From: Octopus sinensis
Taxonomy: Eukaryota
DNA length: 64,000 nucleotides
Direction: 5' to 3'
NCBI RefSeq assembly: GCF_006345805.1
Contig: NC_043008.1
Location: forward strand, 46,376,001 to 46,440,000
Shown here: positions 1 through 8,750 of the stretch, piece after piece
Layout: each line of letters starts with the position of its first letter
How positions within the stretch are numbered: position 1 is the stretch's first letter
Translations under genes and position numbers: made by a program
Notes under the pieces: generated by a model
Databases searched by the model: none
Told to the model about the DNA's origin: nothing
Seen by the model: the letters and a program-made list of their open reading frames with translations, nothing else

Positions 1-1501
1 GATGCCAATACAAAAAAGTCAACAACAGTAAATTTCGCAGATATTCTTCGCCAGAAAAAGGAGATTGTTACATTCACAAATGAAGAGCTCATAGAAACAA
101 GAGCTCTCTTTACAACCCGTGGACAAGATTTAGTCCTGCATACACCTCAACATATAAAACAAGAAATAGAAAATAAGACAATTGTATATAAAATTATTAG
201 AAAAAACAAAAAACCAAATGAACAGATTACAAAATCTGATGTGGAGAAATGTTTAAAAAATATAATGAAAGAAAAAGAGTATATAAACTGGGGTCCCCAG
301 TTTAACACAGTAGTGGTCCGCTTCCCTAACCAGGAAGTGGCAAAAGTTCACTCTACTGAGTCTCTGGGAAATGATGAAATCATCATGGTCCCTTATTATA
401 AAAACCAGAGGGTGAGTAGAATTACTATCAGAAATGTACCCCCCGATATGCCGAACAAATGGATAACGGGCAATCTGTTACCACTTGAAAAAGATCAATA
501 TTCTAGAAACAGCCGTGTACCTAAACGACAATTGGGGTGGAAAAACAGTAGTTGTGACCATCCAGATTGAGGGGGCTTCTATCGAGAGCCTACCCGACAA
601 GATATACTTGGAGAATGGGCAATGCCTATATGTTATGGCAGAAGGCAAAAAGCCTAGATGCTACAAATGTGGCAGCCCCGAACATTTGATTGCCAAGTGC
701 GATCTGGTACAGAAAAAACAAGAAAGAACAATTCAGAAAACAAATAAAATCCCTTTGTTGCCAACACCAACACCAACACACTCAATTATGGAACAACGCC
801 AAGAAAAACAAAAAATCCCAACAACATCACCAAGAAAAACAGTACCAACACAATCACCGTTGACGTCACAACCAATTAAACTTGTTGAATCTTCAAAAAA
901 TCGACCCACACCCACACCCAGGACGACAATTAAAAAGACAGAAAACACTGACGAGAAGACAAATGCTACCCCTAACACCACAACAACACAAACACCGCAC
1001 AAAACATCAACAATTTATACAAGCATACATAGTGATCCTGTTCTTTTTCCTCTACCCCATACTGATACCTCGGACGACGAAAGTTCGACGGAATGGCAAA
1101 TAGCCACAGGGGGTAAAAGAAAAAGATCCAAAAAATCCACCAAAGAAGGAATTAAAGCAGGGAGATATCTCACTCAGGACAACATTCCCCTAGACAATCA
1201 AAAGAGTAATGAACCCGTAAAACCACACACACAACTAACTGCAATAGACACAGACAATAAAGAATTAATGGACTACATCAAATCTAACATGGTCGTCTGT
1301 GAAGATGATTTTAAGACTAACAATCATCCGCACACCACACCACCGAAACACATCAGAATTTTACACATAACACAAGCACAACACCACATACTGAAAACAT
1401 TATTTCCGAATGTGGTAGGCGGGTATCAACGATACCTGTCGAAAAAACTATACAAACACCTCATCAAAAACGATACAAAAGAAGAAGAAGAAAAAAATTA
1501 A
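1..1501 (+). pseudogene. ORF1 (gag-like, CCHC zinc knuckle), frameshifted near 470
   Basis: Frame 1 is open from base 1 (DANTKKSTTVNFADILRQKK...) to 570. Coding-like sequence continues in the 485-1501 frame (AICYHLKKINILE...CYKCGSPEHLIAKC, then T/P/K-rich tail). Start codon is upstream of the window. Confidence 0.8.
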
Positions 1502-1588
1502 ACTTTTAAAATGAGTAAGTGACCTCACTTCTTGCCTCTTGTCTCTTCTAATATAGTGTGTAAAACACAATTTTCGTAATTGTCAAGT

Positions 1589-4500
1589 ATGCTTAAATTA
1601 GGTTGTGTGAATGCGCGTGGCTTGGCGTCGGCTTGGAAGCAAGGTTACCTTCTAAACGACATCAAGTCACTGGACGTGGATATAGTAGCTATCAGCGAAA
1701 CCAGACTCAGTAAGCCGCGGGCCCTCGAGTCCATGTTTGGCAATCAATTTGACATTTATTTTTCTCCCTGTCTGCCGAACATGGGTGGTGGAGGTACTGC
1801 GGTGCTTTTTCGAAAGAGTCTAAAGGTAAAAGTAAGAGCAATATTCCTAGACCCGGAGGGTAGGCTGGTTGTCTTGGACGTGGATGGCAGAAATGGGTGT
1901 GCATTCCGTCTGATGGCAGTTTATGCACCGTCCTTAACGGGTCGGGCGGATTTCTTCAGACGTCTAGAGGTTTTCCTGGGTACGTCTAGACCTTTACTGT
2001 TAGTAGGGGATTGGAACGCTACCTTGGACACGCATCTAGATTATGTGGGAAAGGATAGGAATAGAAGGGGGTGTAAGAGCCTCAAAGACCTGCTCAGACG
2101 TTTCCATTTGTCTGACAGGTTCCGACTCGACCATCCGAACGTGCCAACGTGGACTTGGACAAACCGCGTCGGATCGTCGAGATCTTATCTAGATAGAATT
2201 CTATGCAGGACAGCGGATAGGGATAGTGTAGGATGTCCACAATTTAAAATAGTCAGCTACACAGATCACAAATTTCTTACGTGTACGCTCGACTTAGATA
2301 AAACACATAGGCAGGGTCCCGGTTACTGGAAACTGAACACGTCGCTGTTAGCGCGACAGGTTTACAGGAACCGGATTAGCGAGTTAATTAAGAGGGCGCT
2401 GACGGGAGCGGTCGTTAACAACCGCTGGTGGTACGCCCTGAAAATGGCAATAAAATCGGAATCAATTAGGTTTAGCAAGGAATTAGCGATAGAACGAAAT
2501 AGAGTAGAGGGAGACTTAGTTAAGAAACTAGAAGAGGCACTTACCACTGGCAGCGCAACCAACGTGCTAGCTGCGAGGATGGCCCTCGACCAACACCTCA
2601 ACGCCAAGCACGAAGGTTGCGTCGTCAGAGCTAAAATGCGTGCCTTAAGGAACGAAGGGATTGAAGCTGCGCGAGAGGCCCGGGTAGCGGAGGCGCAGCG
2701 TGGCAACAGATCAACCATTCGGTCTCTAATAGATCAACAGGGATGCAGTTTACTCGAACCCGAAAGGATGTGTGAGGCCTTTCAACAGCACTTTGCTCGA
2801 CTGTTTGGTGCGAGTGGTGGGTCGGAACGAGGGATGGATTTCAGTGCCTACCTGACCGACCTGCCGCGGCTCTCGGCAAGAGAGGCGGAGTGTTGTGAAA
2901 GTCCCATCACAGCCGCTGACGTGTGGGATGCGATGGCGGGCTGCGCGAGGGATAAGTCGCCTGGATTGGATGGTTTACCCTACGAGCTGTATTGTCGAAT
3001 GCCAGACTTGTTTGGCGAACTCTTGGCATCAGTCTACTGCAACTGGCAACAAAACGGGAGAATCCCCGGTTTCGTGAGCCGAGGTGCAGTGACGTTGCTG
3101 AAGAAAGACTCAAACAAGGGGAATTTTATAGATAATTTCAGGCCCATCACTCTGCTCAACGCAGATTTGAAAATTTTGGCCAAAGTAATAGCCGAGAGGT
3201 TGGCGCTTGTCATTGGTGGGGCGCTGATAAATTTGGATCAGTCTAAAGCCTTCGATAGGGTCGACCATCGGTACTTGGCGGCCGTCCTCAGGGCGGCTGG
3301 CTTCGGTCCCGTCTTCCGCGGTTGGATCGCTGCCTTGTATAGCGGCATCCGATCGGTGATTCGGGTAAACGGTCACCTGTCTAAACCGTTTGACATCACG
3401 CGTTCGGTCCGTCAGGGGTGTCCCCTGTCGGCGCTTCTGTATGTATTGACTCTCGAGCCGCTACTGCGGAAGCTGGCGACACTGAGGGGCATCCCACGGG
3501 AACTGGGTTGCGGGACGAGCGTGTCGGCATATGCGGACGATGTCACCGTCATAGTGTCGAGCTACCAGCACATCGAGCTGGTCGGCGAGACACTAAGAAA
3601 ATATGAAACGGTGACGGGAGCAAAGATTAACCCGGAAAAGTCAGTGGGTTTGCTACTCGGCACCTGGAGAAGCAAGCCCATGCCGTCCGACTGCGGCTCA
3701 GTAGTGGGACGCTGGACGGACGGACCGGTTAAATTGCTCGGGGTCTGGTTCAGTCCGGACCTCCAAATGGATAAGAACTGGGACGAGATCACGAGTAGAG
3801 TGGTCGCTCTCAGCCAAACATGGGCCGAGAGAAAGCTGTCTCTAAAAGGCCGGGCGGAGGTGGCGAACGCGTACATCGCATCCGTCATCGATTACCGCCT
3901 GACCGTCGTACCTTGTCCCGACGCCACCATCACCAAACTGGAACGCATACTCTTCCGCTTCCTGTGGAAGGGTGGCGTTCCGATGGTGAGGAAGTCCATT
4001 TGCTGTCAACATCCGTTGAATGGAGGACTGGGCATGCCGTGGTTGATGATGCGCAGGCATGCGCTGAGGCTGCGACATCTCTGGAAATTCATCGTCGACG
4101 GTGAACAGGTGTGGGCGCCGTTTGTGAGGCGCGACTTCCCGCAGCTCGTCTCACTAACCGAACTGCAAACGTGGATCAAAAAGAGACCGAAACTGGGCGA
4201 TTGGCACCGAGAGTGTCGCCAAGCTCTACAGCAGCTCTGCCGACCGGGGTCAAACTTGTGCAACTTCCAAACGACTAAAGAGTTCTATAGAGGACTAGTG
4301 GAGGGGAGGTCCGACGACACACTCGGGGCAAACCTGGGCGTCGACGAGGAATTCCTAACCCGCCTGTTCAGGACGACGTTCGGGCCGGGGCCTATGGATA
4401 ACTTCCAGAAATCCCTGGCTTGGCAGTGCTATCGAGACGCACTACCTGTTCGAGAGAAGAGCTACAGACACGGTTCGAAAACCATCACCGGACCGACCTG

Positions 4501-4918
4501 CCCGAGATGCGGTCAGAGCGACGAAACCGTTCTGCACGCACTCGTGCAGTGTCCAGATATTTCAGAGCTGTGGTCCTTCGTCGAACAGCTGTTGTCACGT
4601 GTAGGTCAGGCTCGCCTATCGGCCGAGTCTATTGTGAATATTGTTCCACCACCTTCCTTTAAACGGGAAGGGAAAACGGTTTTCGTTACGCTGATGGCTA
4701 TGGCGAAAGAATGTGTGTGGTGGACGCGTTTGAAAGGACTGCAAACAAACACCTTCCTCTCTGGTCAGTCTCTCGTCAACTTTTTCAAGTACCACTTGAA
4801 AAGGAGGATGAGAATAGAGAGGAAGGCTTTGTCGAACGAATGTTTTAATAAAAAGTGGGTAAAAGTGGCAAAAATGGTCAGTATGAAAGACGACACTATT
4901 TTAAGCATAAATCTGTAA
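1589..4918 (+). CDS. ORF2 polyprotein: AP endonuclease, reverse transcriptase, zinc finger (RT has an apparent in-frame deletion)
   Basis: APE motifs NARG, ISET, GDWN, YLDR, TDH, GYWKLN; RT motifs SPGLDG, NFRPITLLN, LDQSKAFD, QGCPLS, YADD (3530-3541); C-terminal CPRC...ETVLHALVQC. First ATG at 1589. Confidence 0.93.
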   Translation: MLKLGCVNARGLASAWKQGYLLNDIKSLDVDIVAISETRLSKPRALESMFGNQFDIYFSPCLPNMGGGGTAVLFRKSLKVKVRAIFLDPEGRLVVLDVDGRNGCAFRLMAVYAPSLTGRADFFRRLEVFLGTSRPLLLVGDWNATLDTHLDYVGKDRNRRGCKSLKDLLRRFHLSDRFRLDHPNVPTWTWTNRVGSSRSYLDRILCRTADRDSVGCPQFKIVSYTDHKFLTCTLDLDKTHRQGPGYWKLNTSLLARQVYRNRISELIKRALTGAVVNNRWWYALKMAIKSESIRFSKELAIERNRVEGDLVKKLEEALTTGSATNVLAARMALDQHLNAKHEGCVVRAKMRALRNEGIEAAREARVAEAQRGNRSTIRSLIDQQGCSLLEPERMCEAFQQHFARLFGASGGSERGMDFSAYLTDLPRLSAREAECCESPITAADVWDAMAGCARDKSPGLDGLPYELYCRMPDLFGELLASVYCNWQQNGRIPGFVSRGAVTLLKKDSNKGNFIDNFRPITLLNADLKILAKVIAERLALVIGGALINLDQSKAFDRVDHRYLAAVLRAAGFGPVFRGWIAALYSGIRSVIRVNGHLSKPFDITRSVRQGCPLSALLYVLTLEPLLRKLATLRGIPRELGCGTSVSAYADDVTVIVSSYQHIELVGETLRKYETVTGAKINPEKSVGLLLGTWRSKPMPSDCGSVVGRWTDGPVKLLGVWFSPDLQMDKNWDEITSRVVALSQTWAERKLSLKGRAEVANAYIASVIDYRLTVVPCPDATITKLERILFRFLWKGGVPMVRKSICCQHPLNGGLGMPWLMMRRHALRLRHLWKFIVDGEQVWAPFVRRDFPQLVSLTELQTWIKKRPKLGDWHRECRQALQQLCRPGSNLCNFQTTKEFYRGLVEGRSDDTLGANLGVDEEFLTRLFRTTFGPGPMDNFQKSLAWQCYRDALPVREKSYRHGSKTITGPTCPRCGQSDETVLHALVQCPDISELWSFVEQLLSRVGQARLSAESIVNIVPPPSFKREGKTVFVTLMAMAKECVWWTRLKGLQTNTFLSGQSLVNFFKYHLKRRMRIERKALSNECFNKKWVKVAKMVSMKDDTILSINL

Positions 4919-5220
4919 CCAAAAGAGACAACGAGAAGTAAGGCGACTTACTCATGTGTTCTTTTTCGAATTGCCTGAGGTGACCTTGGTCTTTTTTGTA
5001 GGTTTTTCTTTCCAAGACAACACCTAAACTGTGAACCTTATATATATATATATATATATTGCTTTTTTATACACCACACAACCCACAGATCCCTATTGAT
5101 CAAACGTTTTTTTTTTTTTTTTTCTTGCCCCACCCATCCCACCTCGAAAAGAAAAAATTCTACATTGTATTTCGTCCATTTTTATTCTGTGTTTAGCCCT
5201 GTGTGGCTACAATAAAAAGT

Positions 5221-5257
5221 TATCTATCTATCTATCTATCTATCTATCCATCTATCT
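5221..5257. repeat. (TATC)n microsatellite abutting the Tx1 3' end
   Basis: Tandem tatc units begin 4 nt after AATAAA. Confidence 0.9.
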
Positions 5258-5495
5258 GTGTGTGTGTATGTATGCATATACATGTGTGTGATTGCATTTA
5301 TGTATGCATGTGTTTACATACACATATCTGTGCGCGAGAGTGTCTTTGTCTGTGTGTGGCCAACTGCTTGTACATATTTGTGGATCTGCCAATAGATATT
5401 ATAAATAATTGGAGTTTGAGAGGTAAAAACGCAGATGAAGTTTGTTGCAGGATAAATTCATGAAAGATTGAAAGACTATGATTACTGTGCTTCTG

Positions 5496-7189: not shown

Positions 7190-8750
7190 CTACTCAATGG
7201 TTTGGCTCTACTAAATGTTTCCCAGGTAATTTGCGGTTCTGTATTTAATTGTCTGCTTAATCAAAGTGTTCGTAACAGCAGATTATTATCAGTACAAAAT
7301 GTCAAAAGCACTTCTCCATTTTATCACATCTCCCATCTCATATCGTCCTAAAAGAGGCCATGAAATGTAGACATTTCCAACTCGTGCATTGCAATCTTCC
7401 AATATGACCAGAAATTTGTCCTTTCATTAATAATTGTGCTGATTCATCATAAAACTACGGTTTTATTAGGAAGAGAGGATCTTTACCTTTTGAACGGCAG
7501 ACAATTTCTAGTTAACTAAACATTTTAAAACTTCGTATACTGGTAGAATGTATCAAAACAAAACAATTTTTTCTCTTGGCTTTCTTGAGAAAATTGTAAT
7601 TTATTTGTTTAACGTAGTTTAATTTTTCAAATTTTAACTAATCCTATGCTCTCTTTTGAGCAAAAATCATTTGCTGCGTCTAAAACTGAGGTAACATCCT
7701 GTAACTAACCCTCACCCAAACCCTGATTTTTTTTCTTAATTGGTACACTAATTTAATTGTTACGCGTGTAAAAAACACTAAAGCAATGGAAAATAATTTA
7801 AACAATTAACAAACAAGATAATTATTTAATTTTATACACACGCTTTCCGTACGTATACGGAAAGCGTGTGTATAAAATAGAATTATTTTGTATGTTAATT
7901 ATTTTCCATTGCATTAGTTTTTTTTACACGCGTAACAATTAAATTAATTTAACAATTAAGAAAAAAATTTAGGGTTAGGTTAGGGCTAGGGTGAGGGTAA
8001 GGGTTAGTTACAGGATGTTATCTCAATTTTAGACGCAGCAAATGTTGTTTACCTAAATGGAGGTAATCGATTGGCTAAAATTGCCGAAATGCTCGGATTT
8101 TTAGACGGAATATCTTACAAACTATAGAATTTTCTCAATAAAACCAAGAGAAAATGATGTTTTATAAACACATTCTACCAGTATACGAAGTTTAAAAGTG
8201 TTTAGTTAACTAGAAATTGTGATGACATCTGCTGTTCAAAAGGAAAAGATCCGGAAGAGACTTTGTTGGTTCACAAAAACTGACAACGGCAAGAAACCAA
8301 CCTTTGTTTTAGTTTTATGTCGCATGACATAGGTCGTTCAGATTTACAACTTGCAGAGGATACCATGGAGGATACCAAGGAAATCTTGAGTGCACACCCA
8401 ACACCAGATTCTCTACGCTGACCCTCAGGTAGCCCTCTCCAGAAGATAATATATCCATGTGTAGGTTCGTTTATATGACCCTCACAGGAGAGACGATTTT
8501 CAGAGAGCGCAACAATATCAAACGAATACTTTTTTGAACTCACGTGCAAGAAGTGCAGTAGGACTTTCTGATCTTCTTTTAAAATAATCATCTAAGATTG
8601 TGCGCACATTCCAACAGCCAAACTTCAGAGGGTATTTATTCTGTCTTCGTCTTGAAGATAGTTTGACCACAGTGGTAGGAAGACAGCCTGACCCACCCCG
8701 TGACACACTGGGTACGTGCCAAGCCAGATCTGTTTCCCTGACGTTCATAC
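7190..8750 (-). mobile_element. Degenerate RTE-clade LINE 5' part (endonuclease), interrupted by the 7477-8252 palindrome
   Basis: Right part: LKFGCWNVRTILD...TALLARE...DIVALSENRL...GYIIFWRG...RRESGVG. Left part, read manually: FLVILEDCNARVG...WPLLGRY...NGEVLLTFC, matching the RTE GDFNARVG...NG.LL..C segment. Confidence 0.8.
7477..8252. mobile_element. Palindromic (fold-back) non-autonomous DNA transposon, 8-bp TSD, possibly Merlin superfamily
   Basis: Ends GGATC...GATCC; perfect TSD GGAAGAGA (7469-7476, 8253-8260); arms fold on a centre near 7852; internal CCCTAA/TTAGGG-like tracts. Confidence 0.88.

Follow-up and report, generated by a model that had tools for sequence, protein, structure and literature searches.

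How one bicistronic RNA of a long interspersed element (LINE) yields much of its first protein and little of its second, and how the second protein comes to favour the RNA that encodes it, are long-open questions, and the solutions described so far, stop–start coupling and 2A peptides, are local ones. They arise again in a stretch of the Octopus sinensis genome (assembly GCF_006345805.1, contig NC_043008.1, positions 46,376,001 to 46,440,000, forward strand; the 64-kb window, in whose numbering positions are given here), where positions 1-5220 are the 3' portion of a 5.8-kb non-LTR (non-long-terminal-repeat) element with two open reading frames (ORFs), starting about 550 nt before the window. 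An initial annotation had noticed that a segment near the end of ORF1 is complementary to one in the 3' untranslated region (UTR), just past ORF2. Comparison of relatives in the same 2.72-Gb genome indicates that these two segments are the outer stem of nested long-range complementary helices maintained across a Tx1-like lineage. By this comparative evidence the structure is real and selected, is larger than first noted and belongs to a known kind of element, while its function is putative; the predicted structure probably leaves ORF2 as a loop with its AUG hidden.

A predicted stem joining the two ends of ORF2

Positions 1511-1547 match the reverse complement of 4923-4955 at 29 of 33 paired columns, with a 4-nt bulge, and by eye the four non-identities are G.G, A.C, C.A and one U.G. 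The duplex energy is -37.9 kcal/mol; the alignment score was reached by none of 5000 spacer-by-UTR shuffles and by one of 200 shuffles of the whole element, and each arm folded alone is locally unremarkable (z scores of -0.05 and 0.18). The 3' arm begins just past the ORF2 stop (4916-4918), as first described. The pairing of these segments stands, but it is longer than had been claimed, since 1552-1556 also pairs with 4913-4917 and 1588-1606 with 4890-4909. This whole set, referred to as helix 1 (Table 1), is present in the minimum-energy fold of 1300-5220, in which the ORF2 AUG is predicted to lie opposite the last ORF2 codons.

The upstream end of the stem had to be reinterpreted. The 5' arm was originally placed 10 nt after the ORF1 stop and was thought to open with a mini-ORF, ATG AGT AAG TGA, whose AUG the duplex might mask. 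All 29 other copies compared (L002-L030) have GAA where the window has TAA (1499-1501); the stop of the window copy is therefore private, and ATG AGT AAG TGA is the true end of ORF1, which in several copies ends ...ETFKMSK. The arm overlaps the family's ORF1 stop at 1520-1522, the AUG that was supposed to be masked is an internal ORF1 codon, and the AUG that is paired is ORF2's own. In family A, that of the window copy, both ORFs are in one frame and the spacer between them is 66 nt; within this family, the 10 bp covering a splice-donor-like motif in the 5' arm and the 9-bp inner helix are nearly invariant.

Two features of the spacer may be recorded here. By eye, 1557-1569 forms a small TGTGT/ACACA hairpin bulging from the stem, alike in C2 and D2 and absent in C and D. 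At 1580-1582 the window and several copies have TTG, and most family-A copies have an in-frame ATG right after a TAA, 9 nt ahead of the conserved ORF2 ATG.

Conservation across families and helices within ORF2

Searching the genome with three outside proteins gave nine families, A to I, with 12 representatives (the nearer outside relatives, P0003-P0009, show 37-68% identity). The eight families compared are 55-83% identical in ORF2, and G is 62% identical to A; ORF1 C-termini and spacers differ widely between families. Family G consists of one frameshifted copy with no clear ATG and was excluded from the codon alignment and the ORF2 helix scans, and the AUG-partner comparison excludes row B2.

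That a long-range duplex brackets or loops out ORF2, as the initial annotation proposed, is supported by comparing these families for covariation: although their sequences differ, cognate arms keep pairing, with changes on both sides, which points to selection. In windows anchored on the donor-like motif and on the ORF2 stop, matching each family's 5' end to its own 3' end gave the lowest summed energy of 362,880 permutations, and the cognate pairing was again the lowest of 362,880 with uniform windows set by AUG and stop alone. The observed energy of the wide (donor and stop) window was reached in none of 1000 shuffles for A, B, C, D, D2 and I and in 1-6 of 1000 for E1-E3 and F, and that of the narrow AUG window in at most 3 of 1000 for eight of the 12 representatives.

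In A, B, C, D, D2, E, F and I, the AUG pairs close to the stop, either in full or in part. For A, C, C2, D, D2 and D3 its partner is at stop -8 to -10, a register in which 74 of 84 cells are paired (18-32 in slid registers) and 5 of 14 columns show two-sided change, whereas group E uses its own register, with 59 of 68 cells paired (13-32 when slid) and two columns of two-sided change. Global minimum-energy folds contain the stem in six of the seven families folded (A, B, D, E1, F and I). Pairing is thus maintained through two-sided changes across diverged sequences, in a test that used no phylogeny. Rfam covariance models gave no match in the element, and the microsatellite-driven microRNA hits at 5253-5329 were under the gathering score.

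Because the global folds had further long helices at homologous places, windows of ORF2 were scanned for pairing partners (2211 pairs of 70-nt windows on a codon alignment of seven families, cognate minus deranged). Helix 3 reached a z score of -8.5 and helix 2 one of -4.6, the largest value of opposite sign being +3.4. Helix 4 (-4.0) has moderate support, a pair at columns 1000/3000 gave -4.4 but weak energy, and candidates at alignment columns 1200/1850 and 50/3250 are weakly supported. A control scan on five unrelated elements, four of them at 54-69% identity, ranged from -3.5 to +4.2. Helices 2 and 3 each rank first of 40,320 permutations, and helix 4 ranks 33rd. For helix 2, 52 pairs are common to at least five of 11 representatives, 20 of them with two-sided change, and 496 of 572 cells are paired (196-262 when slid); for helix 3, the corresponding figures are 32 pairs common to at least six of 11, 7 two-sided, and 311 of 352 cells (117-176). 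The helix partner was the best within the representative's own ORF2 in nine of 11 cases for helix 2 and in ten of 11 for helix 3. These nested helices, the donor-like motif in the 5' arm and an acceptor-like site past the 3' arm are all additional to what was first noticed. In all 12 representatives A content is 34-43% in ORF1 and 22-27% in ORF2, and the fold boundary is therefore also a composition boundary.

A number of observations weigh against a selected fold of this extent. In the wide window the energies of G and H are not significant (reached in 149 and 156 of 1000 shuffles), and in the narrow AUG window the result is weak for G, H, A and I (14, 37, 64 and 150 of 1000). The global fold of family H is without the stem, and sense strands fold better than antisense in just eight of the 12 representatives, which is uninformative. 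Within family A the middle helix is weaker, with one-sided changes, in older subfamilies, and a one-sided change strengthens this same helix in a young one. For helices 2 and 3 the pairs were counted on predicted folds, in mixed registers and with kinship ignored, and in an ungapped 12-bp scan helix 3 ranked 11th and helix 2 fell outside the top 15. The families are related, so that pair counts are not independent events, and all positive data come from one genome. With these points taken into account, we still consider it very probable, from the comparative sequence evidence, that the nested fold is real and under selection.

Beyond this lineage, a first metagenome scan found no relatives. 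A second gave 80 distant L1/Tx1-like loci, of which 25 had a usable full ORF2; the 55 dropped comprised 45 without an ORF of at least 950 aa, eight without a start motif and two too close to an end. In each of two window tests, only one of the 25 passed the threshold set for the stem, and the donor occurred in two of the 25. Distant elements are mostly without the stem, and the ORF2-bracketing fold therefore looks lineage-specific.

Table 1. Coordinates of the element's features and predicted helices in the window
Feature	Position	Strand	Remarks
ORF1, Tx1-like LINE	1..1522	+	starts ~340 nt before the window; family stop TGA 1520-1522
Helix 1, 5' strand, outer	1511..1556	+	originally described arm plus 1552-1556
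GTAAGT, donor-like motif	1515..1520	+	wholly paired by the 3' arm in family A; use in splicing putative
Helix 1, 5' strand, inner	1588..1606	+	holds ORF2 AUG 1589-1591; partner 4890-4909
ORF2 (APE endonuclease, reverse transcriptase, zf-RVT)	1589..4918	+	1109 aa in the window copy; stop 4916-4918
Helix 2, 5' strand	1836..1890	+	ORF2 coding; partner 4589-4646, 47 pairs, -59.8 kcal/mol
Helix 3, 5' strand	1930..2006	+	in ORF2; partner 4295-4374, 63 pairs, -81.0 kcal/mol
Helix 4, 5' strand	3498..3560	+	partner 4095-4152; moderate support
Helix 4, 3' strand	4095..4152	+	partner 3498-3560; moderate support
Helix 3, 3' strand	4295..4374	+	partner 1930-2006
Helix 2, 3' strand	4589..4646	+	partner 1836-1890
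Helix 1, 3' strand, inner	4888..4917	+	final ORF2 codons and part of the stop; partner is the AUG region
Helix 1, 3' strand, outer	4923..4955	+	last 10 nt pair with the donor motif
Predicted 3' splice acceptor	4961..5001	+	branch-like TGAC, pyrimidine tract, TAG 4999-5001; families A, B, C, D and D2 only
AATAAA, then (TATC)n microsatellite	5211..5250	+	(TATC)n borders family-A copies at both ends

Possible functions of the fold

The reading that we prefer, and to which we give somewhat less than an even chance, is that the fold acts as a translational clamp on ORF2. It is favoured because the most widely shared feature is a stem linking ORF2's two ends and containing its AUG, with the ORF1 stop at or near the outer edge of the predicted stem. 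The helices would form in vivo, the innermost first and the outer ones zipping up as transcription ends, and the closed stem would block scanning or internal starts at ORF2, leaving low-level reinitiation only. A ribosome terminating on ORF1 would loosen the stem and allow occasional synthesis of ORF2 protein (ORF2p), and an ORF2 ribosome arriving at the 3' strands would reopen it. The donor-like motif may bind U1 on the nascent RNA and protect the A-rich ORF1 part from premature 3'-end formation; the 3' arm would cover this motif later in A, D and D2, and the full-length RNA would then remain unspliced. The net outcome would be many ORF1 protein (ORF1p) and few ORF2p molecules per RNA. If the clamp operates, a chimera of one family's 5' end and another's 3' end should break the control. 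The lineage appears to offer an ORF-scale, sequence-defined and covarying RNA fold in nine natural versions, and it would be a rare case of a 3.4-kb coding region in a cellular genome under the dual constraint of protein and structure.

In the RNA phage MS2, a distant strand hides the replicase start, and ribosomes on the structural gene open the pairing. The arrangement proposed here is alike in that a polymerase start would be masked by a distant strand and opened by ribosomes; it differs in that MS2 relies on bacterial initiation and has its masking strand upstream in the coat gene, whereas here it would be ORF2's own 3' end. In SART1 the structure is reportedly local to the stop–start site, whereas here the partner strand lies 3.4 kb off at the ORF2 stop, and stop–start spacing and frame vary by family. 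SART1 coupling and human L1 reinitiation are alike in that translation of ORF2 follows termination on ORF1; for SART1, RNA structure downstream of the stop is important, and the L1 spacer of 63 nt compares with 66 nt here (PMC5972666). A need for low ORF2p has also been argued (PMC3894237).

The main rival, which we regard as possible though doubtful, is that ORF2 is a retained, self-folding spliceosomal intron (1515-5001), whose helices either hide the donor or bridge it to a 3' UTR acceptor, and so set the ratio of ORF1-only mRNA to full-length RNA. The reverse-transcriptase gene would then be a 3.5-kb self-folding retained intron, with the closing stem gathering donor, ORF2 start and ORF2 stop into a switch between an ORF1-only message and a clamped genomic RNA; this would possibly be a LINE that uses splicing on purpose. 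GTAAGT is the textbook consensus of a 5' splice donor. Eleven of the 12 representatives have GTRAGT no farther than about 10 nt from the ORF1 stop (C has GTAACC), against a background of 17 in 51,600 nt, or 0.8% per 25 nt. The motif occupies at least three positions relative to the stop, being downstream of it in H, and its variants remain within the consensus (GTGAGT in E1, E3 and two family-A copies). The 3' arm covers the donor completely in A, D and D2, and partly or not in the others. An origin of the motif from tandem stops (TAA G TRR) was rejected, as E and G are without a second stop and the motif of H is past the stop.

At the other end, a pyrimidine tract, assessed by simple pyrimidine count, and a YAG/G boundary with C/T variation at -3 lie 86-111 nt past the ORF2 stop in all five A-D representatives, and splicing would leave ORF1 open some codons further. 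However, none of the seven E-I representatives has a comparable acceptor in the 3' UTR, nor is there a strong shared one inside ORF2. The acceptor-bearing A, B, C, D and D2 fall together on one side of a quick, midpoint-rooted tree, and in this clade splicing may act alongside the clamp.

Spliced forms were sought in RNA and in genomic copies. Contigs of four runs were compared with copy L070, three runs being presumed RNA and one large run of unrecorded kind serving as DNA control. No spliced junction was found among the 15 of 101 joints listed, a list crowded by the large control run, in assembled contigs only, which lose rare forms. Contigs from two runs (X2 and X7) pass through the donor unspliced, whereas in one probable-RNA contig (X5 record 19) the sequence stops at the donor G, a weak hint of splicing. 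In the genome, no ORF2-less or spliced copy of family A was found, the exact GAA-form ORF1-end motif occurring at 121 places, all unspliced; none was found for family D either, where the single match is a short local duplication (families A and D were searched). These genomic searches are low-powered, because an ORF1-only RNA would lack ORF2 in cis and so would rarely be copied.

Further splice-like signals were seen elsewhere in the element. In family I (L192-L196) a further donor motif, again perfect, overlaps the ORF2 stop. Toward the 5' end, A, B, C, D, D2, H and I also carry a donor-like motif (for family A at L061:3493-3655, just upstream of the window), and in family A an AG directly precedes the ORF1 ATG, which may mark a further small intron or else a promoter-proximal U1 site; no copy lacking this candidate 5' UTR intron was found, again in a search of low power.

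Splicing and U1 sites have been described in other elements. In plant Ty1/Copia, short-GAG splicing and U1 control of termination similarly involve a donor conserved close to the structural ORF's end, more structural than catalytic protein, and a U1 site with a splicing-independent role (PMC5580714). That element has LTRs, a short intron and early termination, whereas the candidate intron here holds all of ORF2 and has paired ends. Zebrafish (AC)m-(GT)n introns are alike in that complementary strands just within donor and acceptor join the two, and differ in being simple repeats and noncoding (PMC4691745); here the sequence is unique and under coding constraint, and the start codon is covered. 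Human L1 splice products and SpIREs show splice sites within a LINE RNA (predicted ones in the present case) but have been called dead ends (PMC5860796), whereas the donor here is kept from family to family and the search for spliced copies found none.

A role of the fold in retrotransposition, by compacting the RNA and uniting the ORF2 start, the ORF2 stop and the 3' UTR for cis-binding of ORF2p, ribosome recycling or reverse transcription, seems to us rather unlikely. It would account for nested helices that span all of ORF2, beyond what masking one codon needs, and for a predicted AUG partner that in most families is about 13 nt or less from the stop. It leaves the donor motif unexplained, however; long helices should impede reverse transcription, no copies that jumped across the base of the stem were found, and the truncation points are too few and too selected to judge by. 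The 5' truncations near the ORF2 start, from a small sample chosen for long ORF2, lie at -45 (L108), -3 (L152), +52 (L105), +102 (L086) and +246 (L123) relative to that start, against two seen within ORF1.

That the duplex is an ADAR substrate, for instance for editing the family-A ORF1 UGA (its A facing C) to permit read-through, is very improbable. By eye, the A of the stop does lie opposite C beside a G.G mismatch in family A, and 12 exact matches carry an A-to-G variant in the 3' arm. But neither the mismatch nor the in-frame layout of the two ORFs is common to the families. A-to-G changes affect 3 of 14 A sites in the 3' arm and 31 of 379 elsewhere, at most a slight excess by informal comparison, and the variant, for the most part inherited within a single subfamily, restores a C-G pair.

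Chance, or an inverted repeat at the DNA level such as the ends of a DNA transposon that had captured ORF2, is scarcely credible: the score did occur once among the whole-element shuffles and sense and antisense energies are not clearly separated, but the arms, though family-specific in sequence, pair cognately, their bulged and wobble-containing strands run into coding sequence at either side, the inner helices covary, and the cross-family tests largely refute it. Terminal inverted repeats of a DNA transposon were rejected as a candidate in their own right, near-perfect noncoding repeats being expected of them, whereas these arms are bulged, family-specific and overlap codons.

The element, its copies and other features of the window

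The element is an L1/Tx1-type non-LTR retrotransposon. Its ORF2 has an N-terminal APE, a reverse transcriptase and a C-terminal zinc finger (PF03372, PF00078 and PF13966, the last at 27.1 bits, just below the cut-off of 27.5), and its best solved relative is human L1 ORF2p (E 1e-55). It has a separate upstream ORF1, a 3' poly(A) signal or tail and 5'-truncated copies, and LTRs are absent. The narrower Tx1 label is given as Tx1-like, the reverse-transcriptase tree having been built from unnamed rows with no named Tx1 references. ORF1, about 622 aa long in an intact copy, has a weak CCHC knuckle match under the Pfam cut-off, and its protein (L066:1666-3531) has no homologue at E 1e-5 among 5.8 billion proteins. 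The window copy is broken: ORF1 carries a frameshift near 467-570 and the private nonsense codon described above, and its ORF2 falls to the length given in Table 1 because of a private 111-nt in-frame deletion in the reverse-transcriptase region, between 3164 and 3251. The best 40 matches in each of two genome searches are 95-100% identical.

The Tx1 clade includes the microsatellite-targeting Kibi and Koshi, and its members are alike in having two ORFs, the APE, reverse-transcriptase and zf-RVT domains and microsatellite flanks (PMC4494074); neither an end-to-end or nested ORF2 fold nor a donor at the ORF1 end is described in the available portion of that source. By an informal count, most full copies viewed here are flanked by (TATC)n or (TTA)n. 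The target is (TATC)n for A, C and D and (TTA)n for B, while the lone G copy lies in (TC)n, and copies from different families often stand in tandem within one microsatellite array. A 2026 annotation of octopus repeats lists 13 recently active L1-Tx1 families, and the terms 'splic', 'intron' and 'ORF2' do not occur in its main text as available (PMC13282606). Our literature search, which left most subscription papers and the Repbase reports outside its reach, returned no report of such a fold in a LINE.

By eye, every family viewed has a hairpin of a C-run, loop and G-run just 5' of the ORF1 ATG, and a CCCYTGTGG-like motif resembling it stands directly before the poly(A) signal (window ~5197-5207). 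Farther along the window, at 7716-7979, lies an 83-nt, 90% inverted repeat around a 32-nt hairpin, which resembles a miniature inverted-repeat transposable element and is unrelated to the LINE.

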